A stretch of 64,000 nucleotides of DNA, taken from contig CALWZW010000001.1 in the NCBI GenBank assembly GCA_944386135.1, positions 86,811 through 150,810 on the forward strand, read 5' to 3'. This document shows positions 867 to 52,584 of the stretch, in pieces (positions within the stretch are counted from its first letter, which is position 1; every line of letters starts with the position of its first letter). This stretch comes from an uncultured Clostridia bacterium. Its GTDB lineage: Bacteria; Bacillota; Clostridia; TANB77; CAG-508. The position numbers and the translations under genes were made by a program. The notes beneath the pieces are model-generated. The model was not told the origin of the DNA and ran no database searches. It saw only the letters and a program-made list of their open reading frames with translations.

Positions 867-959
867 GTAGGTGTACCCAAGTGGTTGAAGGGGACGGTTT
901 GCTAAACCGTTAGGGTTGCGTAAGTGGCCGCGAGGGTTCAAATCCCTCCACCTACGCCA
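867..959 (+). tRNA. tRNA-Ser(GCT)
   Basis: Acceptor gtaggtg/cacctac + gCCA, anticodon loop ttGCTaa, long variable arm, T-loop ggttcaaatcc. Confidence 0.9.
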
Positions 960-1001
960 AAATAAGAAATCCATTTAGAAATTTTTCTAAGTGGATTTTT
1001 T
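939..1001 (+). repeat. Direct repeat copy 1 (last 21 nt of tRNA-Ser(GCT) plus its terminator hairpin); putative attL
   Basis: 63 nt, ~94% identical to 1682-1744. Confidence 0.7.
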
Positions 1002-1033
1002 CTAAGGCAGATTAAAAAATATTATTAAAAACA

Positions 1034-1062
1034 TTGACTATGTATCAATATTTTGATAAAAT
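1034..1062 (+). promoter_or_regulatory. Putative promoter (TTGACT-17-TAAAAT) for the phd-relE module
   Basis: -35/-10 hexamers ~30 nt upstream of the RBS ggaggtg. Confidence 0.4.
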
Positions 1063-1092
1063 ATGTATATAATATTAACGGAGGTGCTTACT

Positions 1093-1347
1093 ATGCCAAT
1101 TATTAGACCAAGTTCTGATTTAAGAAATAATTACAATGAAATTTCTACAATTTGTCATCAAACAAATAGTCCAGTATATATTACAAAAAATGGTGCCGGA
1201 GATTTAGCAGTAATGAGCATTGAATTATATGAGCTTTTAACAGATAAGCATATATTATACAAAGAATTAGAAAAAGGAATAAGCTCATTAGAAAAAGGAG
1301 AAAAATTTTCTGAAGAAGAAGTATATGAAGAATTAAATAAAATATAG
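1093..1347 (+). CDS. Type II antitoxin, Phd/YefM family
   Basis: MPIIRPSSDLRNNYNEISTI...VYITKNGAGDLAVMSIELYELL matches the Phd/YefM fold; RBS ggaggtg; 15 nt before the toxin gene. Confidence 0.8.
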   Translation: MPIIRPSSDLRNNYNEISTICHQTNSPVYITKNGAGDLAVMSIELYELLTDKHILYKELEKGISSLEKGEKFSEEEVYEELNKI

Positions 1348-1362
1348 AAAGAGGGTTTATTT

Positions 1363-1671
1363 GTGAAAAAATACAATATAGAATATTCAAAAGAAGCAAA
1401 AGAAGATTTAATAAGAATAAAGCAATATATAAAATATAATTTACAAGAGCCAGAAACAGCAAATAAACTAATCTCTAAAATAAGAATGTCAATAAAAACT
1501 TTGAAGGATATCCCCGAAATACAGGCAATTATTGATGATGATATAATAAGAAAACTTGAAATAAGAAAGTTGATAGTAGATAATTATATTGTATTTTATA
1601 GAATAAAAAATGATAGTATTGAAATTGTTAGAATTATGTATGGAAGAAGAAATTGGATAAATTTATTATAA
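1363..1671 (+). CDS. Type II toxin, RelE/ParE family
   Basis: 102 aa, GTG start, ...IVRIMYGRRNW C-terminus typical of RelE/ParE; operonic with the upstream antitoxin. Confidence 0.8.
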   Translation: MKKYNIEYSKEAKEDLIRIKQYIKYNLQEPETANKLISKIRMSIKTLKDIPEIQAIIDDDIIRKLEIRKLIVDNYIVFYRIKNDSIEIVRIMYGRRNWINLL

Positions 1672-1681
1672 TAAGATAAAA

Positions 1682-1744
1682 CAAATCCTTCCACCTATGT
1701 CAAAATAAGAAATCCATTTAGAAATTTTTCTAAGTGGATTTTTT
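1682..1744 (+). repeat. Direct repeat copy 2 (degenerate tRNA-Ser 3' end plus hairpin); putative attR
   Basis: caaatccttccacctatgtcaaaataagaaatccatttagaaatttttctaagtggatttttt vs copy 1. Confidence 0.7.
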
Positions 1745-2109
1745 TTAAGAAAATAAATAATTATAAAAATTAAATAAATAAAATACAATATAATTTATAA
1801 AAATAATAATAAATTAATATGAAAATTATAAAAAAGAAAAACAATTATAAATTAAAATATTAATAAAAAATTATATAATTAAAATTAAATAAAAATTTAT
1901 TATTTAATACTAATAAAACAAAATAATTAATAGAAAAAATATATAAATTTATATAAAAAGTAAAAAATAAAAATAAATATTTAGTCATTAAAATAAAAAA
2001 TAAAATTTTGAAAATATAATTAAGAAAAAATAGAGAAATAAAATAAAAATTATAGCAATTTTATATAGAAGAGGGTATAATCTGACTGATTTTTTTAAAG
2101 TAAATAATA

Positions 2110-2740
2110 GAATTACAAAAAGTGTAAACTAGAAAAAAAGGAAAGAATATCATAAATGATAAAAATAAATGTACCAATTTTAAAAAAAATTCTTTGAGAA
2201 AAAAACTGAAATTTTGAAAAAAGTGAAAGTCTAAATAGCAGAAAATCCCTAATAAAAATTAAAGCAATGTGGATAACTTTTTGGATAAAATTGGAAGAAA
2301 AATGAATCAAGAAGAGCATAACTTATCATAAAAAACATCTTAGAAATGAAAGATAAGATGACAACATTTAAGAGGATAATAAAATCAAAATAACACACTT
2401 ATGTAAACAACAGAAAAACAAAGATATTTAATGAAAAATAAGAAAAATATTTTAAAATTTATATAAAAAAATATATTATAATAAAGAAATAATAAAAAAT
2501 TTATAAAAATAAAGTGAAAAAATTTATTTATTTTATAAATTAAATAAATAAAAATCAAGATATAATAAAATAAAAATATTATATAAATAAAATAAAAGAT
2601 AAAATTTAAGAAAAAAATAATAATAAAAAATATTTTATAAAAAATTATAATAATAAAAATTAAAATAATAAAAAATATAATATAAAAAATTATTTAATAA
2701 AATAAAAAGACACATGACAAAAAAGCAAAAATAATTTTTA
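2110..2740. repeat. Long AT-rich repeat unit A (diverged copy) with a DnaA-box pair
   Basis: Shares gtgtaaac..., the core aaatagcagaaaatccctaataaaaatNaaagcaatgtggataactttttggataaaa, cacttatgtaaacaa and the terminal cacatgacaaaaaa with units B and C; tgtggataa at 2268-2276 is the reverse complement of TTATCCACA. Confidence 0.6.
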
Positions 2741-3689
2741 TAAAATAAAACAAAAAATATAAAATAAGTTTTATAAAAAATTATAAATAATAATAAAAAA
2801 TAAAAGTAAAAATTTTTAATAATAAAATTATATTATTAAATTCCAAAAATCAAAAAACAAAAAAATAATTATATTAGAAGAATATATAAAATGAAATAAT
2901 AAATAAAATTAATAAGAAATAAGAAATATGAAAAATAAAAATAAATATAAAAATAAATATAAATATAAATATAAATGGCTAATCTATAGGCTAGAAACGG
3001 CAACAAATAAAGATCCTAAAAATAAATAAAAAGTTTTGCAAAATAAATATAATATTTTATTATATAAGAAATTAACAAAATAATAAAAAAAGTTAATAAA
3101 AAATAAACAATGTTTTAAATAATATCCGATAAATTATTTAATTTAAAATATAAAAAAATTATTAAAAGATTTTATAAAAATTATAAAAATGAAAAATATA
3201 AAATTAATTTAATAAAAAATAAAAGTATTTGTTATTAAATTAAAAGATTAGAAAATTATATAACAAAAAATAATTTATTAAATAAGAATATGAAAAAAAT
3301 AAATGTTATAATAAAAAATGATAATAGAAAAAATAAAAGTGAAAAAAATTTATAAAAGAAAATTATCATTAAAAATTAAATTCAAAAAATAATAAAAATT
3401 TTTTGACGAAATATTAATGAGAACAAAAAAAGAAAATTAATAAATTGAAAAATTAAAATTTAATTAATTGAAAATTAGAAAATAAAAATACTAAATTTTT
3501 AAATACAAAATTAAAATGAGATATAAAAAAGTATAAAAAGATAATTTAAAATATTTAAAATTTAAGAAAATATTTATAAAAATATAACAATAAAAAAAGT
3601 AAAAAGAAAAAATAAAAATTATGAGAACTTTATAGAAAAATCAGGTTAATCTGAATAACTTTTTCTAAGAGAAAAAATCTAAAACAAAA

Positions 3690-4412
3690 AAATGTAAACC
3701 ATAAAAAAAGAAAAAGTTATCACAAAAGAAAGTAACAGCAAGATTGAGTTTGATGAGATGTCTTAAAGGACTCTTTTTAAAATTTTGAAAGAGGTATAAG
3801 CTTAAATAGCAGAAAATCCCTAATAAAAATGAAAACAATGTGGATAACTTTTTGGATAAAACTGGAAGAAAAATAGAGAAAAAATGATAAAAATCATTAC
3901 AAAAAGAGTATGATAGAGAGAAAATAAGAGGACAAAATAAGGAAGATGAGGAAGACAAAATAATACACTTATGTAAACAATGAAAAAATTAAGAATCTGA
4001 TAAAAGATGAAGCAAAAATTTTAGAAATTTATATAAAAACTAATACTTAAGTAAAAAGATATAACAAAAAAAATAGTAAAATAAATTAAAAAATATATAT
4101 GTTTTATAAAATAAAGAAATAAAAATTAGAAATTATTAAAAATATTTTATAAAAATAAAATTGTAAAATAGAAAAATATAATATAAAAAAAGAAGTATAA
4201 AAATAAAAAAGAAAATAATAAAAATAAAATCAAATAAATTAATTTTAAAAATATAAAAAAAGAATTAGTAAAAAATTTTTATAAAAATTATATAAATAAA
4301 AATTATAAAATTAATATAATAAAAAAATAAATTAAAAATTTTAAAAGTTTATAAAAAAATATTTAATAAAAACACATGACAAAAAAACAAAAATATTTTT
4401 TTAAAAATAAAA
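3690..4412. repeat. Long AT-rich repeat unit B with a DnaA-box pair
   Basis: About 95% identical to unit C over ~700 bp; tgtggataa at 3839-3847 followed by ttggataaaa. Confidence 0.7.
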
Positions 4413-4799
4413 TAAAAAATTTATGAAAAGAAAAAAATAATTATCAAATAAATTTTATAATAAAAAAATAATGATATAAAAAATAAAATTAAAATTTTTT
4501 TATAGAGAAAAATTTTTAAAATAAAAATTAAATTTTAGAATAAAAAAATTTTATAGAATATTAATAAAATAAAAATTAGAAAAGTGAAATTAAAAAAAGA
4601 AAAAATATATAATTAAATATTTATATATGAAATTAAAATGAGCTAAAAAATAATAAAAATAAGATAAATTTTTATAATAAAAACTTTAAAAATAGATTCG
4701 AAAAAATCTAATGAGAAAAGAATAAAGAATATAGTAAATTTATATAAAAGTTTAGTCTAATCCGAGAGATTTTTTTAGAAGCAAAAGAATAGAAAAGTA

Positions 4800-5500
4800 A
4801 AAAGTGTAAACCAAATAGAAAGAAGAAAACGACATAAAAACCAGAAATAAGTAGAGAGGCTTATGTAAGAAGATAAGAAAAGTAAGTTTTGAAATTTTGG
4901 AAAGACTAAAAGCTTAAACATCAAAAAATCCCTAATAAAAATGAAAGCAATGTGGATAACTTTTTGGATAAAACTGGAAGAAAAATAAAGGAAAAATGAT
5001 AAAAATCATTACAAAAAGAGTATGATAGAGAGAAAATAAGAGGACAAAATAGGGAAGATGCGGAAGACAAAATAATACACTTATGTAAACAATGAAAAAA
5101 TTAAGAATCTGATGAAAGATGAAGCAAAAATTTTAGAAATTTATATAAAAACTAATACTTAAGTAAAAAGATATAACAAGAAAATAGTAAAATAAACTAA
5201 AAAATATATATGTTTTATAAAATAAAGAAATAAAAATTAGAAATTATTAAAAATATTTTATAAAAATAAAATTGTAAAATAGAAAAATATAATATAAAAA
5301 AAGAAGTATAAAAATAAAAAAGAAAATAATAAAAATAAAATCAAATAAATTAATTTTAAAAAATATAAAAAAAGAATTAGTAAAAAAATTTTTATAAAAT
5401 TATATAAATAAAAATTATAAAATTAATATAATAAAAAAATAAATTAAAAAATTTATAAAAAAATATTTAATAAAACACATGACAAAAAATAAAATATAAA
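4800..5500. repeat. Long AT-rich repeat unit C with a DnaA-box pair
   Basis: Near-identical to unit B; tgtggataa at 4951-4959. Confidence 0.7.
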
Positions 5501-5623
5501 ATAAATTTAAAATTAAAATTCTAATATTAAATAAAAAATATTTTAAACTATTTAATTTAATATTTATAAAAATAAATAAAAATAAACCAAAGAAAAGTTT
5601 TTTCTAAGGTTTATTTCTATTCA

Positions 5624-8600
5624 TTATTTTGTAATTAATTCTTTTTCTGCTTTTTCATCAACAATATTTTTATCAATGTCTTGTCTTGCTAAATTATCTT
5701 TTGCAACAGTCATTAACAACTTTAATCTATTAGTTTGGTTTGCTTCACTAGCACCAGGATCATAATCAACAGGAGAAATGTTTGCGTCAGGATATTTAGA
5801 ACGTATAGTTTTTATTACTCCTTTTCCAACAACGTGATTTGGAAGACATGCAAAAGGCTGAACACAAACAATATTTGGAATATCATTTTCTATGTATTCT
5901 ATCATTTCTGCAGTCAAAAACCAACCTTCTCCAGTTTGATTACCTATAGATAAAATATCTTTTACTTTATCTTCCAAATGCCAAATATCACATGGTGGTA
6001 AATAATTTTTTGAAGAGTTTGATAATGCTATTCTTAAATCTTTTTCAAAAATGTCTATTAACTTTAAAGCAAATTTAAATAATTTTGCTTTTGTTTTATC
6101 TGTATTAAGTAAAGTGTTAAATGTTATTTTATGAGTTGCCATAAACTTAACAAATCCCATAAAATCTGGCATTATAACTTCAGCACCTTCTCTTTCCAAT
6201 ACATCTATAACGAAATTATTTCCGAAAGGATGATATTTTATTAAAATTTCTCCAACAATACCAACTTTAGGTTTTTTAATAGATGTATCTAATTCAATTT
6301 TTTCAAAGTCATTAACCATATCGTAGATACTTTGCTTAAATTGTTTTGAATTAGACTTTTGCACTAAAGTTTTACATTTTTCCATCCAAGTATCATATAC
6401 TTTTTGCGTTTCACCCTTGTTTACTTCATAAGCTCTATTTTTTAACAATAATTTTTGAAGTAAATCACCATATACTACAGATTTTAATAATTTTTCAATT
6501 AATGGAATTGTAATTTTAAATCCAGGATTTTTTTCCATACCTACAATATTAAATGATATTACAGGAACTTGAGGAAAACCAGCATCTTTTAAAGCTTTTC
6601 TTATAAATCCTATGTAATTTGTTGCTCTACAACCGCCACCTGTTTGAGACATAATAAGAGCAGTTTTATTTACATCATATTCTCCAGATTGAAGAGCTTC
6701 AATCATTTGTCCAGTTGTTAAAATTGATGGATAACATGCATCATTATTTACATACTTAAGTCCAGTTTCAACTGTCTTCTGTGTACATTTATCAAGTAGT
6801 TTTACGTTATAGCCACAAGAGTTTACGGCTGACTCTAATAGTTCAAAATGTATAGGAGCCATTTGAGGAATAAGTATAGTATAATCTTTTCTCATTTCCT
6901 TAGTGAAAGGAACTTTATGTATATCATACTCACCTTTAGGTATAGCACAAGAAGAAGTTCCCTCTTTCTTCTTTTTTTCAAGACGCTTATTTATACTTGC
7001 AAGTAATGACCTAATACGTATACGTACAGCACCTAAGTTATTTACTTCATCAATTTTTATAAGAGTATACATTTTATCGTAACTTGATAATATTTCTTCA
7101 ACTTGGTCAGTTGTTACAGCATCGACACCACAGCCAAAAGAGTTAAGTTGAACAAGTTCTAAGTTATCATGAGTTCCAACAAATTCTGCAGCAGAATATA
7201 ATCTACTATGAAATACCCATTGATCAACAACTCTTAAAGGTCTTTTGACATTTACATCTTTTGCAACAGAATCTTCTGTTAAAACACAAAGCCCAAGACT
7301 TGTGATTAGTGTATCTATACCATGATTAATTTCTGAGTCTACATGGTATGGACGACCTGCAAGAACAATTCCTTTCAAATCATGTTCTTCCATATAAGCT
7401 AATGCTTCTTTAGCCTTATCCCTAATATCTTGTTTGCATTTTTGATATTCTTCTTCAGCTGCTTTTGCAGCTTCTGTTAATTCTTTCTTATTAAAATTAT
7501 ACTCTGCAAATTCATCTAATTCTAATACTTTTGCGACTAAATTTTTAGTATCAAAAGGTAAGAAAGGATTAATAAATTTAATGTTTTTAATTTCCTCAAC
7601 ATTATTTTTTATAACTTCTGAATAAGAAATAACAATAGGACAGTTGTATTTATTATCAGCATCTTTATTTTCCTTTCTAGAATATGGCATACAAGGATAA
7701 AATATAGTTTTTATTCCAGCATTTATTAGACTTACAACATGACCATGAGAAAGTTTTGCAGGATAGCATACTGACTCAGAAGGCATAGATTCCATACCTT
7801 TTTCGTAAGTTTTTCTAGTACTTTTTTCAGAAATTATAACCCTAAATCCAAGTTTAGTGAAGAAAGTAAACCAGAAAGGATAATCTTCATACATATTTAA
7901 AACTCTTGGAATTCCTATAACTCCTCTAGGAGCTTTTTCAATAGGTAAAGGTTCATAGCCAAAAATTCTTTCTGCCTTGTATTTTACTAGATTAGGTAAT
8001 TCAGACTTGCCTGTAACAATACCAGCTCCACGTTCGCAACGATTACCTGAAATATGAGTTTTTCCATTGTTAAATCTATTTATAGTTAATTGACAATGAT
8101 TTTCGCAACCATTACATCTTGTGTGAGTTACTTTAATATCTAACTTATCAATTTCCTCTAAAGTAGCAAGAGTTGAAGTATATTCCATGTCCAAATTTGC
8201 TTCATATTGTTCTTTACTTAAAAGAGCAACACCATAAGCACCCATAAGTCCAGCTATATCCGGTCTAACAACTTCTTTTCCGACTATAAGCTCAAAACTA
8301 CGAAGAACAGCATCATTGTAAAAAGTACCACCTTGAACAACGATATGATCACCTAAAGTTTCTGGATCTCTAATTTTCATAACCTTTTGAATAGCGTTTT
8401 TAATTACTGAAATAGAAAGTCCAGCAGAAATATCCCCAACAGAATATCCCTCTTTTTGTGATTGCTTAATCTTAGAATTCATAAAAACTGTACATCTAGA
8501 ACCTAAATCTACAGGGTGTCTAGCTGTTAATGCCTCATTTACAAACTCTTCAATAGAAAGATTTAAGCTTTTAGCGAAAGTCTCTATAAAAGAACCACAA

Positions 8601-9949
8601 CCAGAAGAACAAGCCTCATTAAGCATTATATTATCGATAGACCCATTTTTTAATTTTATGTATTTCATGTCTTGACCACCGATGTCCACAATACTTGTAA
8701 CATTGGGCATAAATTCAGAAGCAGCTCTATAATGAGCGATTGTTTCAATTTCATTTAAGTCAACATTTAAAGCTGTCTGAATCAACTTTTCACCATAACC
8801 TGTAACTCCTGCATAACGTATTTTAGCACCATTTGGCAAAATACTATAAACTTCTTTTAACATATCTATTACACTTTTTAAAGGATCTCCCTCATTGTTT
8901 CTATAAATAGAATAAAGAAGAGCTCCTTCATTATCAATTATTGCAAGTTTTGTAGTAGTAGAACCTGCATCAATACCGATAAAACAATCACCAGAGAAAT
9001 TCTTTAAATCTCTTCTTTTAACCTTTGCTTTAGAATGACGTTTCTTAAATTCATCGTATTCTGCATCAATTGAAAATAAAGGAGGTAAAGGTTCAGTAGT
9101 AGTATCTTTAGAATTCCTTAACACTTCAATTTTACTCTTTAATTTTTGTACAGAAATAGGATTTCTATTTAAAGAATCTAGAGCAGCACCTTTTGCTACT
9201 AAAAGATGTGCATCATCAGGTACTATTGTTTCTTCTGGAGTTAAGTTCAAAGTTTCAACAAAACGTTTTCTTAGCTCAGACAAGTAGTTTAGAGGACCAC
9301 CTAAAAAAGCAATATTTCCACGTATTGGTCTACCACAAGCAAGTCCACTAATAGTTTGATTTACAACTGCTTGAAAAATTGAAACTGCAATATCAGACTT
9401 AGCAGCACCTTCATTTATAAGAGGTTGCACATCAGTTTTGGCAAAAACTCCACAACGAGAAGCTATAGGGTATATTGTAGTATAATTTTTAGCAAGTTCG
9501 TTTAGTCCAGCAGTATCAGTATGTAAAAGGCTTGCCATTTGGTCCAAGAAAGCACCTGTTCCTCCAGCACAAGTTCCATTCATACGTTGCTCTACAAATT
9601 TATCAAAATAAATTATTTTTGCATCTTCTCCACCAAGCTCTATGACAACATCAGTTTGAGGAATATACTTTTCAACAGCACGTTTACAAGAAACAACTTC
9701 TTGGATAAAAGGTACATCTAAGAAATTAGCTGCAGACATTGCACCAGAACCTGTTAATGCAATAGTAAATTCATTATTTGGATAAGCCTCTGCAAGCTCA
9801 TTTAACACCTTACATATAGTATTTTTAGTATCAGAAAAATGTCTTTCATAAGATGTATATATAGTTTCTAAATTATCATTCATAACAACAATTTTTACAG
9901 TGGTTGAACCAACATCTAATCCAACATGTAATAATTTTTCATTACTCAT
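5624..9949 (-). CDS. Fused CoA-substrate-specific enzyme activase: two BadF/BadG/BcrA/BcrD-type ATPase domains plus a 2-hydroxyacyl-CoA dehydratase D-component-like domain (1441 aa)
   Basis: Two acetate/sugar-kinase-fold ATPase motifs (LHVGLDVGSTTVKIVV; CFIGIDAGSTTTKLAII), Cys-rich C-terminal domain (CNGCENHCQ), uninterrupted ORF. Confidence 0.8.
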   Translation of the reverse strand: MSNEKLLHVGLDVGSTTVKIVVMNDNLETIYTSYERHFSDTKNTICKVLNELAEAYPNNEFTIALTGSGAMSAANFLDVPFIQEVVSCKRAVEKYIPQTDVVIELGGEDAKIIYFDKFVEQRMNGTCAGGTGAFLDQMASLLHTDTAGLNELAKNYTTIYPIASRCGVFAKTDVQPLINEGAAKSDIAVSIFQAVVNQTISGLACGRPIRGNIAFLGGPLNYLSELRKRFVETLNLTPEETIVPDDAHLLVAKGAALDSLNRNPISVQKLKSKIEVLRNSKDTTTEPLPPLFSIDAEYDEFKKRHSKAKVKRRDLKNFSGDCFIGIDAGSTTTKLAIIDNEGALLYSIYRNNEGDPLKSVIDMLKEVYSILPNGAKIRYAGVTGYGEKLIQTALNVDLNEIETIAHYRAASEFMPNVTSIVDIGGQDMKYIKLKNGSIDNIMLNEACSSGCGSFIETFAKSLNLSIEEFVNEALTARHPVDLGSRCTVFMNSKIKQSQKEGYSVGDISAGLSISVIKNAIQKVMKIRDPETLGDHIVVQGGTFYNDAVLRSFELIVGKEVVRPDIAGLMGAYGVALLSKEQYEANLDMEYTSTLATLEEIDKLDIKVTHTRCNGCENHCQLTINRFNNGKTHISGNRCERGAGIVTGKSELPNLVKYKAERIFGYEPLPIEKAPRGVIGIPRVLNMYEDYPFWFTFFTKLGFRVIISEKSTRKTYEKGMESMPSESVCYPAKLSHGHVVSLINAGIKTIFYPCMPYSRKENKDADNKYNCPIVISYSEVIKNNVEEIKNIKFINPFLPFDTKNLVAKVLELDEFAEYNFNKKELTEAAKAAEEEYQKCKQDIRDKAKEALAYMEEHDLKGIVLAGRPYHVDSEINHGIDTLITSLGLCVLTEDSVAKDVNVKRPLRVVDQWVFHSRLYSAAEFVGTHDNLELVQLNSFGCGVDAVTTDQVEEILSSYDKMYTLIKIDEVNNLGAVRIRIRSLLASINKRLEKKKKEGTSSCAIPKGEYDIHKVPFTKEMRKDYTILIPQMAPIHFELLESAVNSCGYNVKLLDKCTQKTVETGLKYVNNDACYPSILTTGQMIEALQSGEYDVNKTALIMSQTGGGCRATNYIGFIRKALKDAGFPQVPVISFNIVGMEKNPGFKITIPLIEKLLKSVVYGDLLQKLLLKNRAYEVNKGETQKVYDTWMEKCKTLVQKSNSKQFKQSIYDMVNDFEKIELDTSIKKPKVGIVGEILIKYHPFGNNFVIDVLEREGAEVIMPDFMGFVKFMATHKITFNTLLNTDKTKAKLFKFALKLIDIFEKDLRIALSNSSKNYLPPCDIWHLEDKVKDILSIGNQTGEGWFLTAEMIEYIENDIPNIVCVQPFACLPNHVVGKGVIKTIRSKYPDANISPVDYDPGASEANQTNRLKLLMTVAKDNLARQDIDKNIVDEKAEKELITK

Positions 9950-23543: not shown

Positions 23544-24714
23544 ATGAAAATTTTGAAGTTCAAAGGAAAAATGTCATTAAAAAATAAAATATTAATAGTC
23601 ATTGCAATATTAATAGTTATCGCAGGAATTAGCGTAGGTGTAATATATGCAGTAAACGAAGAAGCAAGAAACTGGATAAATATAAACATATTAAGAAAAG
23701 AAATAACAGAAGAAGATGTGGCAACAATACAGCTTGATGTGGATAAAACACAATACATATATGCCTATGATAAATATATAACTATACTTTGCAATGGAAA
23801 ATTAGAGATGTACAATGGATATGGATCAAAAGATTATGAATTAGATGTAAATGTAAGTAATCCAATATTTGATACAAGTGGTTCATATCTTCTAATAGCA
23901 GAAAATAGCGGACAAAACGTATATTTAATATCTGAACGGAAAAATAGTGTGGCAAAATAAAGTAGAAGGAAATATAAAAAAAATAAATGTAAATAAAAAC
24001 GGCATTGTATCAATAATAACAGAAGGAACAAGCTATAAAAGCGTAATAATTACATTTGATAAAAACGGAAAAGAACTATTTAAAACATATTTAGCATCAA
24101 CAATTGCTGTCGCATCAGATATATCAGTAGATGGAAAATATCTAGCAATAGCAGAAGTAAGTATTGGAGGAGCGGTAGTAGAATCAAGTATAAAAGTTAT
24201 AGAAATTGAAAAAGCCACACAGGGAGATACAACAAATTCTGTCATATATAAATATAACGCTGACTCTAATAAAATAATAACAGATATCAAATATCAAGAA
24301 AAAGGACAACTAGTATGTATGTATGATAATGAAATACATATTGTTGACCAAGGAACAGATAATAAAGTACTAGAATTTGACCAAAATACACAAATTGCAG
24401 ATATAAACTTAAAAAGTTATACATTAAGAGCAGAAGAAATATCAACAGGATTATTTAGTGCTAAAACAGATATTATACTAACAAATATATTAACAAATGC
24501 AGAGACAACCTATACAATAGAAAGTGCAATAAGAAATGTAGTTTGTTATGAAGAGGTAGCAGCAATAAATTTAGGAACAGAAGTACATCTAATAAACTTA
24601 AATGGATGGCTTGAAAAGAAATATACATCAACACAAGAAACAAAAGATATAGTACTAGGAAATTCTGTTGCTGGAATTGTTTATAGGGATAGGATTAAGA
24701 TTATTACTTTTTAG
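23544..24714 (+). CDS. Hypothetical membrane-anchored protein (~389 aa), broken by a +1 frameshift at 23937 (gaaCGGAaaa)
   Basis: N-terminal TM; ORFs 23544-23960 and 23947-24714 join as ...YLISEGKIVWQNKVEGN... when C23937 is skipped. Confidence 0.55.
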
Positions 24715-34642: not shown

Positions 34643-34797
34643 GAATTGAAATCCTACTATGAGATAAAAATAAATCTAACTTTTGCGTGGAGAGTAATTT
34701 TCAATAAAAATTTACGAATCTCGTCAGGTCCGGAAGGAAGCAGCGATAAGTAGAACCTTTTATGTGAAAGTTACTTTCCACGGAAAAGTTAGATTTA
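34643..34797 (+). ncRNA. ffs: Signal recognition particle RNA (short 4.5S type, ffs)
   Basis: Conserved domain IV motif gtcaggtccggaaggaagcagc; terminal helix aatctaacttttgcgtgg / ccacggaaaagttagatt; TTGTAA-17-TATAAT promoter at ~34605; canonical position just upstream of dnaX. Confidence 0.65.
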
Positions 34798-48644: not shown

Positions 48645-51600
48645 ATGAAAGACATTAAACATGAAAAATGCGTACGTAAAACGTTCGCAAAAATTGGTGA
48701 CAGCATTGAAATGCCAAATTTCATCAAAGTACAAAAAGACTCTTATGAATGGTTTTTAAAAGAAGGATTAGGAGAAGTATTAAAAGATATATCTCCAATA
48801 GTAGACTATTCAGGAAACTTAGTACTTGAATTCTTTGATTATTACATGGAAGACAAAACAAAATATTCATTAGAAGAAACAAAAGAAAGAGATGCTACAT
48901 ACTCTGCAAGACTACATGTAAAAGTAAGACTAATAAATAGAGAAACAGGAGAAATCAAAGAACAAGAAATTTATTTAGGCGATTTCCCTATAATGACAGA
49001 TAGCGGAACATTCGTAATAAACGGTGCAGAAAGAGTTATAGTAAGCCAATTAGTACGTTCACCAGGATGCTATTATGCAGCAGACTTTGATAGAACAGGA
49101 AAGAAAATATTTACATCTACAGTAATGCCAATAAGAGGAGCATGGATAGAATACGAAACAGATTCAAACGACGTATTCTATGCAAGAGTAGACAGAACAA
49201 GAAGACTACCTGTTACAACACTACTTAGAGCAATTGGATTAACAACAGATGAACAAATAACAGAATTATTTGGCGAAGATGAAAAAATATTAGCAACATT
49301 ACAAAAAGATACAGTAAAAACTCAAGATGAAGCTTTAATAGAAATATATAAGAAATTAAGACCAGGAGAATTACCATCAGTAGATGCAGCAAGAAACCTA
49401 TTCAATGGATTATTCTTTGATGAAAGAAGATATGACCTAGCAAAAGTAGGAAGATATAAATTTAACAAAAAACTAAGTCTAGCAACTAGAATTGAAAACA
49501 AAATAGCATTCGAAGATATTATTGATGAAGAAACAGGAGAACTTTTAGTTTCAAAAGACACAATAATAACAAAAGAAATGGCACGTAAGATTCAAGATGC
49601 TGGAATAAATATTGTTAATGTAAAAGTAGAAGACAAGAAAGTTAGAGTTATAGGAAATGGAACTGTAGATATCCATAATGTTGTTTCTATAGACTTAAGT
49701 GACTTGAATATTAAGGAAGAAGTTAATTATTCAGTACTTAAACACATACTAGAAACAACCGAAGAAAAAGACCTAAAAAAAGCAATAGAAGAAAATATGA
49801 ACGACCTAATTCCAAAGCATATAACAACAGAAGATATGATAGCTTCTGTAAGTTATTTACTAAACTTAGCTCATGGACTAGGAACAGTAGACGATATTGA
49901 CCACTTGGGAAACAGACGTATAAGAAGTGTTGGAGAACTTTTACAAAATCAATTCAGAATAGGATTAACAAGACTTGAAAGAGTTGTAAGAGAGAGAATG
50001 ACTATTCAAGACTTAGATGTTGTAACACCACAAACATTAATCAACACAAAACCTATAACATCTTCAATAAGAGAATTCTTTGGAAGTTCACAACTTTCAC
50101 AATTTATGGATCAAACAAACCCATTATCAGAACTAACACATAAAAGAAGAATATCAGCATTAGGACCAGGAGGACTTTCAAGAGAAAGAGCAGGATTCGA
50201 AGTAAGAGACGTTCACTATACACACTATGGAAGATTATGCCCTATTGAATCTCCAGAAGGACCAAACATAGGACTAATCTCAGCACTATCTTCATTCGCT
50301 ATAATCAATGAATATGGATTCATTGAAACACCATATAGAAAAATAGACCCAGAAACACATAAAGTAACAGACGAAATAGTATATATGGCAGCTTATGATG
50401 AAGACGGACACATCATAGCACAAGCAAATGAACCAATAGGAGAAGACGGAAAATTCATAAATAAAAAAATAAAAGTTAGATACTTAGACGAAGTAACAGA
50501 AGTATCAGCTGATAGAGTAGACTATATGGATGTATCTCCAAAACAATTAGTTTCAGTTGGAGCAGCCATGATACCATTTTTGGAGCATGACGACGCAAAC
50601 CGTGCACTAATGGGAGCAAACATGCAACGTCAAGCAGTTCCTCTAATGATAACAGACTCACCAATAGTAGGAACAGGAATAGAATACAAAGCTGCAAAAG
50701 ACTCTGGAATAATGATACTTGCAAAATCTGACGGTGTAATAAAGAAAGTTACAGGAGACGAAATTACACTAGAAACAACTAAAGGAGAAATCGAGACATA
50801 TAAACTACGTAAATTCAAGAGAACAAATGGTGGAACATGTATAAACCAAAAACCAATAGTAGTAAAAGGCGAAAAAGTTAAAGCAGGAGATGTTATAGCA
50901 GATGGACCTTCTACACAAAATGGAGAAATGGCGCTTGGTAAAAACGTAATAATAGCATTCACAACTTGGGAAGGATACAACTATGAGGATGCTATACTAT
51001 TAAGTGAAAGACTAGTAAAAGAAGATGTATATACATCAATACACATTGAAGAATACGAATGCGACTGTCGTGACACAAAACTTGGTTCAGAAGAAATTAC
51101 AAGAGACATACCAAATGTTGGTGAAGACGGATTAAAAGACCTAGATGAAAATGGAATAATAAGAATAGGTGCAGAAGTTAGACCAGGAGATATTCTAGTT
51201 GGAAAAGTTACTCCAAAAGGAGAAACAGAACTTACAGCAGAAGAAAGATTACTTCGTGCAATCTTTGGAGAAAAAGCAAGAGAAGTAAGAGATACATCAC
51301 TTCGTGTACCACATGGAGAATCAGGAACAATAGTAGATGTAAAAGTATTTACAAGGGACAACTCAGACGAATTAGGCCCTGGCGTAAATCAAGTAATTAG
51401 ATGCTATATTGCTCAAAAGAGAAAGATATCTGTAGGAGATAAAATGGCTGGACGTCACGGAAACAAAGGTGTAGTATCAAGAATATTACCAGTTGAAGAT
51501 ATGCCATTCATGCCAGACGGAACTCCAGTAGATGTCGTACTTAACCCATTAGGTGTTCCTTCACGTATGAACTTAGGTCAAGTTCTAGAAGTACACTTAG

Positions 51601-52403
51601 GAGCAGCAGCAAAAGCATTAGGATATAAAGTTGCAACACCAGTATTTGACGGTGCAACAGAGGAAGAAATTGTTGAATTATTAAAACAAGCAGGAAGACA
51701 ACCAAATGGAAAAACAATTCTTTATGATGGAAGAACAGGAGAACCATTTGATAAGCCAATAACAGTTGGTGTAATGTATATGTTAAAACTACACCACTTA
51801 GTAGATGATAAGATTCATGCTCGTTCAACAGGACCATACTCATTAGTTACACAACAACCTCTAGGAGGAAAAGCACAATTTGGTGGACAAAGATTTGGAG
51901 AAATGGAAGTTTGGGCACTAGAAGCTTATGGAGCATCACATACTCTACAAGAAATGCTAACTGTAAAATCAGACGACGTTGTAGGAAGAATAAAGACATA
52001 TGAAGCAATTGTAAAAGGCGAAAATATCCCAGAACCAGGAGTACCAGCAGGATTTAAAGTATTAATAAAAGAACTACAAAGCTTAGGACTAGATGTAAGA
52101 CTATATTCACAAGACAACAAAGAACTTGAACTTAAAGAGAATATAGACGAAGGAATAGACTTCAATCTAGAAAGAGAGCAAAAAGATAAAATGCAACTTG
52201 AAGAAGACGAATTGGCAGAAGGATATGAAGAAGAAACACTAGATGATGATGAACTCCTAGACGAAGATGAGATATTTGATGACGAAGACGTAATAAATGA
52301 TGATGAATTATTAGATAATGACGATATGATGGATAGCGATGAAATATTTGACAATGATTTAGCAGAAGACAATATAGAAAACAATGAAGACACAATTGAA
52401 TAA
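48645..52403 (+). CDS. rpoB: DNA-directed RNA polymerase subunit beta
   Basis: 1252 aa, collinear with RpoB; acidic D/E-rich C-terminal extension; no internal frameshift. Confidence 0.97.
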
Positions 52404-52584
52404 TTTTTTCTAAATTTATGAAATAGACAAGAAGGAATTGTACAGCAGTGGATTATTTTATAGAAAATAGAAAAGAGCATAATCGAAAGTAATAGTAAAT
52501 AGTGAAAAGTGAATAGTTAAAATAACAACTATTCACAATTCACCGTTATACTGTTCACTATATTAGTTATAGGGGGTCTAAATT

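Follow-up and report, generated by a model that had tools for sequence, protein, structure and literature searches.

The window analysed here is a 64,000-nucleotide stretch of DNA from an uncultured Clostridia bacterium (contig CALWZW010000001.1, forward strand, positions 86,811 to 150,810), and the locus in question is an extremely AT-rich, non-coding block near its left end that carries three tandem repeat units, each with a perfect DnaA box. A cluster of tRNA-Ser genes bounds the block on one side and a large convergent gene bounds it on the other, and the block recurs with 99.9% identity in L001, an independent metagenome contig; other loci used for comparison are likewise given as L numbers. 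The features are listed below in window coordinates, with E1 and E3 standing for the motifs found upstream and downstream of the box.

1750–5620, + strand: ultra-AT-rich, A-skewed non-coding block with the tandem array
2124–2408, + strand: unit A module, with E1 GTAAAC 2124–2129, CCCTA 2247–2251, box TGTGGATAA 2268–2276, second box TTTGGATAA 2280–2288 and E3 CTTATGTAAAC 2398–2408
3694–3978, + strand: unit B module, with E1 3694–3699, CCCTA 3818–3822, DnaA box 3839–3847, second box 3851–3859 and E3 CTTATGTAAAC 3968–3978
4806–5090, + strand: unit C module, with E1 4806–4811, CCCTA 4930–4934, DnaA box 4951–4959, second box 4963–4971 and E3 CTTATGTAAAC 5080–5090
2711–2724, 4373–4386 and 5476–5489, + strand: unit-end motif CACATGACAAAAAA
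1–959, + strand: tRNA-Ser cluster (ARAGORN, Rfam), the origin-side boundary of the block, with a tRNA 3' part 1–59, tRNA-Ser(CGA) 620–712 and tRNA-Ser(GCT) 867–959
939–1749, + strand: small insert between direct repeats, outside the array, with phd/yefM 1093–1347 and parE 1363–1671
5624–9949, − strand: convergent 1441-amino-acid (aa) BcrAD_BadFG + DUF2229 gene, 2-hydroxyacyl-CoA dehydratase/activase-like, the far-side boundary

Between 1750 and 5620 the + strand consists of 59.8% A, 28.0% T, 8.2% G and 4.1% C, which amounts to 87.8% A+T and agrees with an earlier reading of this DNA (hereafter the original prediction) that put the block at roughly 90% A+T with an A bias; 68% of the strand is purine, the AT skew is +0.36 and the G+C fraction per kilobase stays at 0.12–0.15. 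The same reading had seen no credible open reading frame (ORF), and indeed the + strand of the block holds none of at least 40 aa, while its − strand holds short low-complexity ORFs only. The spacers between modules show a quasi-period of ~7 nt made of A-runs, as slippage would leave, and no clean 10.5-bp signal of helically phased A-tracts.

Three homologous units, A, B and C, were confirmed in the window, as was the period of ~1.1 kb proposed for B and C (1111–1112 nt). B and C are the closest pair and A is diverged, as had been described; the identity of B and C, put at ~95%, came out at 92% in a gapped global alignment of ~710 nt and at 94% ungapped over 300 nt, and A is 80–82% identical to the other two with gaps and 61% without. 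The 26-mer CAATGTGGATAACTTTTTGGATAAAA has exact copies at 2265, 3836 and 4948 and no others in the 64 kb (shuffles gave none); diverged units were seen in five other species. Each unit of the window has its perfect box TGTGGATAA (2268, 3839 and 4951) as predicted; the neighbouring box had been misplaced, since the one in register is the one-mismatch TTTGGATAA, which follows after 3 nt rather than 4, so that the pair TGTGGATAA/TTTGGATAA is spaced 12 bp start to start. Across the whole window TTATCCACA is found four times, against 0.73 expected, with three of the four copies inside units. The fourth copy, a perfect DnaA box (23738–23746), lies inside a DUF5711-family ORF and is probably there by chance. 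Unit B also has AAAAAGTTATCACA (3712–3725), an inverted copy of TGTG(G)ATAACTTTTT (3839–3853) that sits ~115 nt upstream of the box and is restricted to this unit, being found neither in A and C nor in the relatives.

The distribution of the units was read from nine loci obtained by exact-protein look-up, with blocks assembled by joining parB-centred loci to loci centred on the convergent 1441-aa gene. In all six unit-bearing species the block is syntenic, flanked each time by the tRNA-Ser cluster and by the 1441-aa gene, which is its boundary in every relative; its length ranges from 2.0 to 10.8 kb.

Window block: 3.9 kb, G+C about 12%, 3 units
L030 species (L030 joined to L035): 10.8 kb, G+C 5–17%, 5 units
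L034 species (L034 joined to L036): 10.7 kb, 6 units
L044: 2.0 kb, 2 units
L046/L047: about 2 kb, 2 units
L032: at least 8.2 kb, at least 1 unit

The three outgroups, whose 1441-aa protein is 80–82% identical, keep the synteny, and there the interval holds patatin, EAL or rrf2-nifS-nifU-mnmA genes; no unit and no perfect box was found in these three intervals. An nhmmer profile of the module matched just the units with perfect boxes and gave no match in the outgroups. The called EAL-domain gene of outgroup L042 (17281–18444) has 10–17% G+C over much of its length, and could be a gene in decay at the place where the ingroup has the array.

The flanking gene gives a measure of how far neutral DNA has diverged: its four-fold-degenerate sites are 0.56–0.60 identical between the window and the unit-bearing relatives, as against 0.50 expected from composition, and neutral DNA is thus close to randomised. 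The unit cores are 48–53% identical between species. Within them, TGTGGATAA is perfect and on the same strand in 19/19 units from the six species, and is flanked by CTTTTT in 17 of the 19; CCCTA (CCGTA in L032) lies exactly 21 nt upstream of the box in every unit, and the composite CCSTA-N16-TGTGGATAAC is kept in one orientation throughout. E1 (GTAAAC or GTAAC) is found 144–186 nt upstream of the box, at distances of 144–147, 153–156, 178 and 186 nt, with no match in the degenerate unit M030_15913. E3 (ATTATGT, with CTTATGT in the window and TTTATAT in M030_15913) is found 109–132 nt downstream, its distances falling into classes of 109, 117–121 and 129–132 nt, and in L046 the distances of the two units are exactly 10 nt apart.

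An unbiased 7-mer screen of the six blocks returned the box 7-mers TGTGGAT, GTGGATA, GGATAAC and ATGTGGA at the top, followed by TGACAAA and TTATGTA/ATTATGT. The DnaA boxes are the block's most strongly conserved feature across the six species, and in the relatives' origin-region loci (21–37 kb) perfect consensus boxes occur in units only. These strong boxes are 867–1894 bp apart, with a repeat length of 0.85–1.9 kb; the second box TTTGGATAA is found in the window species alone, without conservation in the relatives. The invariant box, the invariant 21-nt offset and the spacer steps of ~10 bp together point to purifying selection at the DNA level: the unit motifs are held by purifying selection at one syntenic site ~10 kb from oriC.

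TGACAAA, which is part of the unit-end theme, recurs in the blocks of 5/6 species. In L032, between 15122 and 20636, there are also ~14 + strand copies of TTG[TA]CA[AG]AAA[AG], mostly TTGTCAAAAAG, spaced about 100 or 205 nt apart and sitting in three G+C-richer stretches; the unit-end motif CACATGACAAAAAA of the window is similar.

Beyond this clade, a genome collection was scanned with the exact 21-mer TGTGGATAACTTTTTGGATAA, the box pair specific to the window species. It matched 25 unrelated genomes (L003–L027) in varied contexts, none from this clade; examples are Pelistega (in the hemE-priA spacer), a Peptococcaceae metagenome-assembled genome (upstream of dnaN) and Litoricola-like Gammaproteobacteria (in a conserved spacer). 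Because this is far more than a rough estimate for a random 21-mer, well under one match in the collection, a direct box pair with a 3-bp gap is a recurrent, generic design of DnaA sites. A metagenome scan for CCCTAR-N16-TGTGGATAACTTTTT, in a collection without this clade's arrays, gave five unrelated chance matches.

The block lies close to the origin of replication. Directly upstream of the window, as read from L001, are a fragmented gidA, parA, parB and DUF4446, with parB ending ~0.6 kb before the window starts, and in the syntenic relatives, which were retrieved via ParB, dnaA is 7.4 kb upstream of parB; the remark in the original prediction that no dnaA or dnaN is nearby was therefore misleading. 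Gene order in L030, L032 and L034 runs from dnaN and dnaA on the − strand to rpmH, rnpA, yidD, yidC, jag, mnmE, gidA, parA (where present), parB, DUF4446, three tRNA-Ser genes and the block on the + strand, so that gene orientation flips at the dnaA-rpmH junction; after the tRNA-Ser genes come many kilobases without a called gene. Three tRNA-Ser genes likewise follow parB-DUF4446 in L030, L034, L044 and L046. The dnaA-dnaN spacer of L030, L032 and L034 (968–1284, 1208–1525 and 1333–1636, respectively) consists of an AT-rich stretch, then (TAG)5-6, then TGTGAATTG TGTGGAAAA, and this layout is that of a DnaA-trio unwinding module, the canonical oriC; its boxes are all one-mismatch variants, with no perfect consensus among them in these three loci. 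The cumulative GC skew of L030 has its minimum at dnaA-dnaN and rises through the block. Gene order, skew minimum and canonical spacer together place the true origin ~9–11 kb upstream of the block, and the window on the leading-strand side of one replichore.

An origin role for the block, one of the functions considered in the original prediction, did not survive this comparison, since strand composition and gene orientation switch at dnaA and not at the block. Upstream of the unit boxes, the adjoining 18 nt do not resemble trios and show no conservation across species, and no box cluster was found in the units, the L030 block having no further boxes at up to one mismatch. What the units share with oriC and its basal unwinding system is a consensus box (a direct pair in the window) beside very AT-rich DNA, close to dnaA; they differ from the clade's own oriC, where (TAG)5-6 trios abut the boxes, in that they lack conserved trios, a box cluster and a skew switch.

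Several side observations concern the origin region. TCC[CG]TAAG is kept at three sites in the oriC spacers of three species (L030 1059, 1202 and 2748; L034 1422, 1565 and 3162; L032 1300, 1443 and 2977), and its resemblance to the CCCTAR/CCGTAA motif 21 nt upstream of the unit boxes makes a shared origin-region binding protein possible. Further along the window, rpoB (1252 aa) and rpoC (1177 aa) lie on the + strand at 48645–56118, ~45 kb beyond the block, which is consistent with one co-oriented replichore leaving oriC, and a small signal recognition particle RNA is found at 34688–34783. The mnmG/gidA gene is in 3–4 pieces in several independent assemblies, and mnmE is split in L032 and L046 (L001 22405–24297; L030 6985–8864; L034 7137–9038; L046 19142–22448; L032 5507–6873); parA is missing in L030 and L031, and rsmG is absent throughout the unit-bearing clade. 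In the outgroups gidA-rsmG is intact, and L043 additionally has rrf2-nifS-nifU-mnmA in the interval. This pattern suggests that the lineage has lost the xm5s2U34 tRNA-modification pathway.

Given boxes conserved in six species and a position ~10 kb from oriC, the best available reading is a DnaA-binding regulatory locus beyond the origin, of the datA-like kind that the original prediction had also put forward. Judging from sequence, we tentatively take the block to be a lineage-specific, origin-proximal tandem array of putative DnaA-binding nucleoprotein modules that resembles datA and DnaA-box clusters, a reading we hold with somewhat less than even confidence. Each module would occupy ~300 bp of a 0.85–1.9-kb repeat and comprise E1, CCSTA, TGTGGATAAC(TTTTT) and E3 set in slippage-like A-rich filler, with CCSTA placed 21 bp, or two helical turns, upstream of TGTGGATAAC(TTTTT). 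DnaA is predicted to bind the strong box of each unit, and one or more partner proteins may occupy the flanking motifs along the same helical face, as their fixed and ~10-bp-quantised spacings suggest. Lying ~10 kb from oriC on the leading-strand side, the array would be duplicated seconds after initiation and, by analogy with known loci, the duplicated array could sequester or inactivate DnaA and so restrain re-initiation; an effect in the DARS-like direction is equally conceivable.

Escherichia coli datA is about 1 kb long, has five boxes, depends on IHF and promotes hydrolysis of DnaA-ATP, and it acts after its own replication (PMC5295017), as the array would. Both are non-coding chromosomal loci outside oriC with consensus DnaA boxes, and both may use a second, architecture-setting factor: IHF in datA and, by analogy, whatever would bind the partner motif at its fixed 21 bp here. 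Firmicutes are not known to have IHF. The two differ in that datA has five clustered boxes in a single copy 470 kb from oriC, whereas the array has one strong box per 0.85–1.9 kb in 2–6 tandem repeats covering 2–11 kb at 88–90% A+T, ~10 kb from oriC, and there is no sequence homology between them. In Bacillus subtilis, deletion of six DnaA-box clusters causes early initiation, with rescue that depends on position and a genetic interaction with soj and spo0J; a DnaA-sequestering role was proposed for these clusters, which the title of the study terms oriC-proximal (Okumura et al. 2012, PMC3245932). They too are intergenic DnaA-box loci of a Firmicute whose effect on initiation is set by chromosomal position; they are, however, short groups of several boxes, some of which regulate neighbouring genes, and unlike the array they have no tandem kilobase repeats, are not ultra-AT-rich and have no ordered partner motifs.

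As for the features expected of a DnaA-binding regulatory locus, the array has consensus boxes kept by selection in non-coding DNA outside oriC (all 19 units, six species). CCSTA, 21 bp upstream in each of them, and E1 and E3, at helically phased distances, could be accessory architectural sites of the kind that IHF or Fis use in E. coli. A number of points weigh against a datA-like role. There is only one strong box per 0.85–1.9 kb, or 2–6 per genome spread over kilobases, the weak neighbouring box occurs in the window species alone, and one-mismatch boxes are not enriched in the blocks. Known titration and regulatory loci have 3–9 boxes within at most 1 kb, and nowhere in the array do at least three boxes fall within such a distance. 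DnaA binding alone would leave unaccounted for the retention of ~300 bp of ordered motifs and of kilobases of A-rich spacer, as well as the strong skew of A over T in a block that is supposedly untranscribed. The phasing, too, we treat as suggestive, because the circular concentration at a 10–11-bp period in the box-to-E3 and E1-to-box spacings (R = 0.85 and 0.80; with a uniform null, p about 0.005 and 0.013) comes from about seven partly non-independent values for motifs picked after inspection. With boxes 0.87–1.9 kb apart, and so without the clustering that defines such loci, and with only 2–6 of them per genome, we tentatively regard the array as working like a datA-type locus and not as a member of that class.

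Transcription would offer another explanation for the + strand composition, which at 65–68% purine and about twice as much A as T is like that of this genome's mRNAs. Each unit could be a DnaA-regulated transcription unit for an unstructured, purine-rich non-coding RNA or a tiny peptide, with the box as operator, and the fixed order and orientation of the motifs would fit. In the window the box overlaps a 12-codon ORF, MWITFWIKLEEK, that differs between the units by one synonymous change and by its stop codon, of which there are three, and the unit cores of L034 are richer in G+C and contain ORF remnants of 55–68 aa. As coding candidates both were rejected, the small ORF because relatives do not retain it (in the L030 units it starts with GTG, stops after 5 codons and lacks a ribosome-binding site) and the remnants because their frames shift from copy to copy and no Pfam or PHROG family matches them. 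No sigma-70-type promoter is conserved, promoter-like sites of that type in 900–6000 being as many as in shuffles, and no reading of CCSTA-N16-TGTGGATAAC as an alternative-sigma promoter was convincing by eye. The terminator-like unit starts of the original prediction have no hairpin, and the same 900–6000 interval has 0 terminator-like sites. Nor did the long non-coding RNAs that it had offered as an alternative hold up as structured RNAs: RNAalifold on 14 units from six species gave 0 pairs at 0 kcal/mol, + strand folds had z-scores against shuffles of −1.5 (741 nt, L034) and −1.0 (361 nt, window), that is, no excess stability, and Rfam returned no family at E<=1 in the window or E<=0.1 in the relatives. 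Just three short islands are conserved between species, which is unlike a functional RNA or peptide, and we consider a transcription unit unlikely. A satellite-like array was the other alternative in the original prediction. The repeats are tandem, and neutral or selfish satellite DNA, expanded by slippage and unequal crossing-over in a decaying AT-biased region with its motifs persisting by concerted evolution, would agree with the real genes that outgroups have in the interval (patatin, EAL, rrf2-nifS-nifU-mnmA), the nearby gene decay in the clade (gidA, mnmE and parA fragmented), the wide variation in copy number and period, the ~7-nt quasi-period typical of slippage and the greater similarity of units within than between genomes. 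Concerted evolution, however, homogenises repeats within a genome and not among six species whose four-fold sites are near saturation; a plain satellite accounts for the filler and the flux in copy number but not for invariant motifs at fixed, helically phased spacings, and strikes us as rather unlikely.

The neighbourhood of the tRNA genes raises the question of a mobile origin. The duplicated tRNA-Ser 3' end noted in the original prediction is real: a direct repeat of 68 nt (939–1006 and 1682–1749, 94% identical), made of the 3' end of tRNA-Ser(GCT) and its terminator, encloses a 0.74-kb toxin–antitoxin insert (1007–1681) that is absent from L030, L034, L044 and L046 and whose genes, identical in L001, match Pfam PhdYeFM_antitox and ParE_toxin there. 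In the window the array lies against a tRNA-Ser gene that serves as an active site of integration, and the units could be amplified origin relics of a small element that integrated there and lost its rep and integrase genes. Many theta-plasmid and phage origins place a DnaA box beside an AT-rich region, and iteron-type origins (P1 oriR, F oriS, pSC101) have one or two DnaA boxes at an AT-rich edge together with ordered protein-binding motifs. The array differs from the latter in having no rep gene, no detected iteron family and no plasmid or phage similarity, and in being chromosomal, tandem and fixed at one locus. No rep, integrase or other gene remnant was found in the block. It matches nothing in Pfam, and nothing similar to it turned up among 72,556 plasmids, 50,697 phages and the IMG/VR contigs. 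The att-like repeat flanks the toxin–antitoxin insert only, and the unit boundaries have no tRNA-end repeats. A dif/Xer site as in IMEX arrays, which comprises 28 bp with two 11-bp arms around a 6-bp centre, was considered and rejected, since the units contain only the half-site-like TTATGTAAAC and no match to the B. subtilis dif sequence at up to 8 mismatches. We take TTATGTAAAC, which lies in E3 (2399–2408, 3969–3978 and 5081–5090), to be the XerD-side arm of that dif, of which the full 28-bp site is absent; ATAA-N5 often precedes it. Varied contexts would be expected of a mobile origin, yet the units occupy one syntenic locus only in six species, and relics would not be expected to hold motifs perfect while neutral sites saturate; such an ancestry is quite unlikely. 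It is improbable, in turn, that the block serves as an accessory origin or has a structural role in the origin domain, whether as an unwinding or supercoil sink or as a platform for loading or anchoring nucleoid or segregation proteins, with DnaA as one ligand among several. DNA of 5–15% G+C over 2–11 kb would be much easier to melt and bend than the sequence around it, the flanking motifs are phased, TCC[CG]TAAG in the canonical oriC spacers resembles the partner motif, and the L030 lineage, one of the two with the longest arrays, has lost parA. Such roles would sit poorly with the missing DnaA-trios and box cluster, with skew and gene orientation that switch at dnaA and not at the block, with blocks that contain no parS or Noc-binding sites, and with spacers that show no clean 10.5-bp A-tract phasing.

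Alongside the datA-like reading we favour, it is also conceivable, though unlikely, that the array belongs to an undescribed cis-acting class: an origin-adjacent, functional 'satellite' in which each repeat would bring DnaA into phase with one or two sequence-specific proteins (at CCSTA, GTAAAC and ATTATGT) and the initiation threshold, or the organisation of the origin domain, would be governed by the number of repeats, in reduced-genome Clostridia from which other functions tied to the origin, Soj/ParA for one, are being lost.

E. coli, and to some extent B. subtilis, are the species in which DnaA-binding loci beyond oriC are understood, whereas the timing of initiation in most bacteria, especially in reduced-genome uncultured Clostridia, is not. 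The locus described here would be a natural experiment on that subject, with one syntenic site that has 2–6 consensus boxes among close relatives and zero in the outgroups. Its fixed partner motif hints at an additional co-factor, and its retention indicates that kilobase-scale, nearly gene-free tandem arrays can persist under selection in a small bacterial genome.

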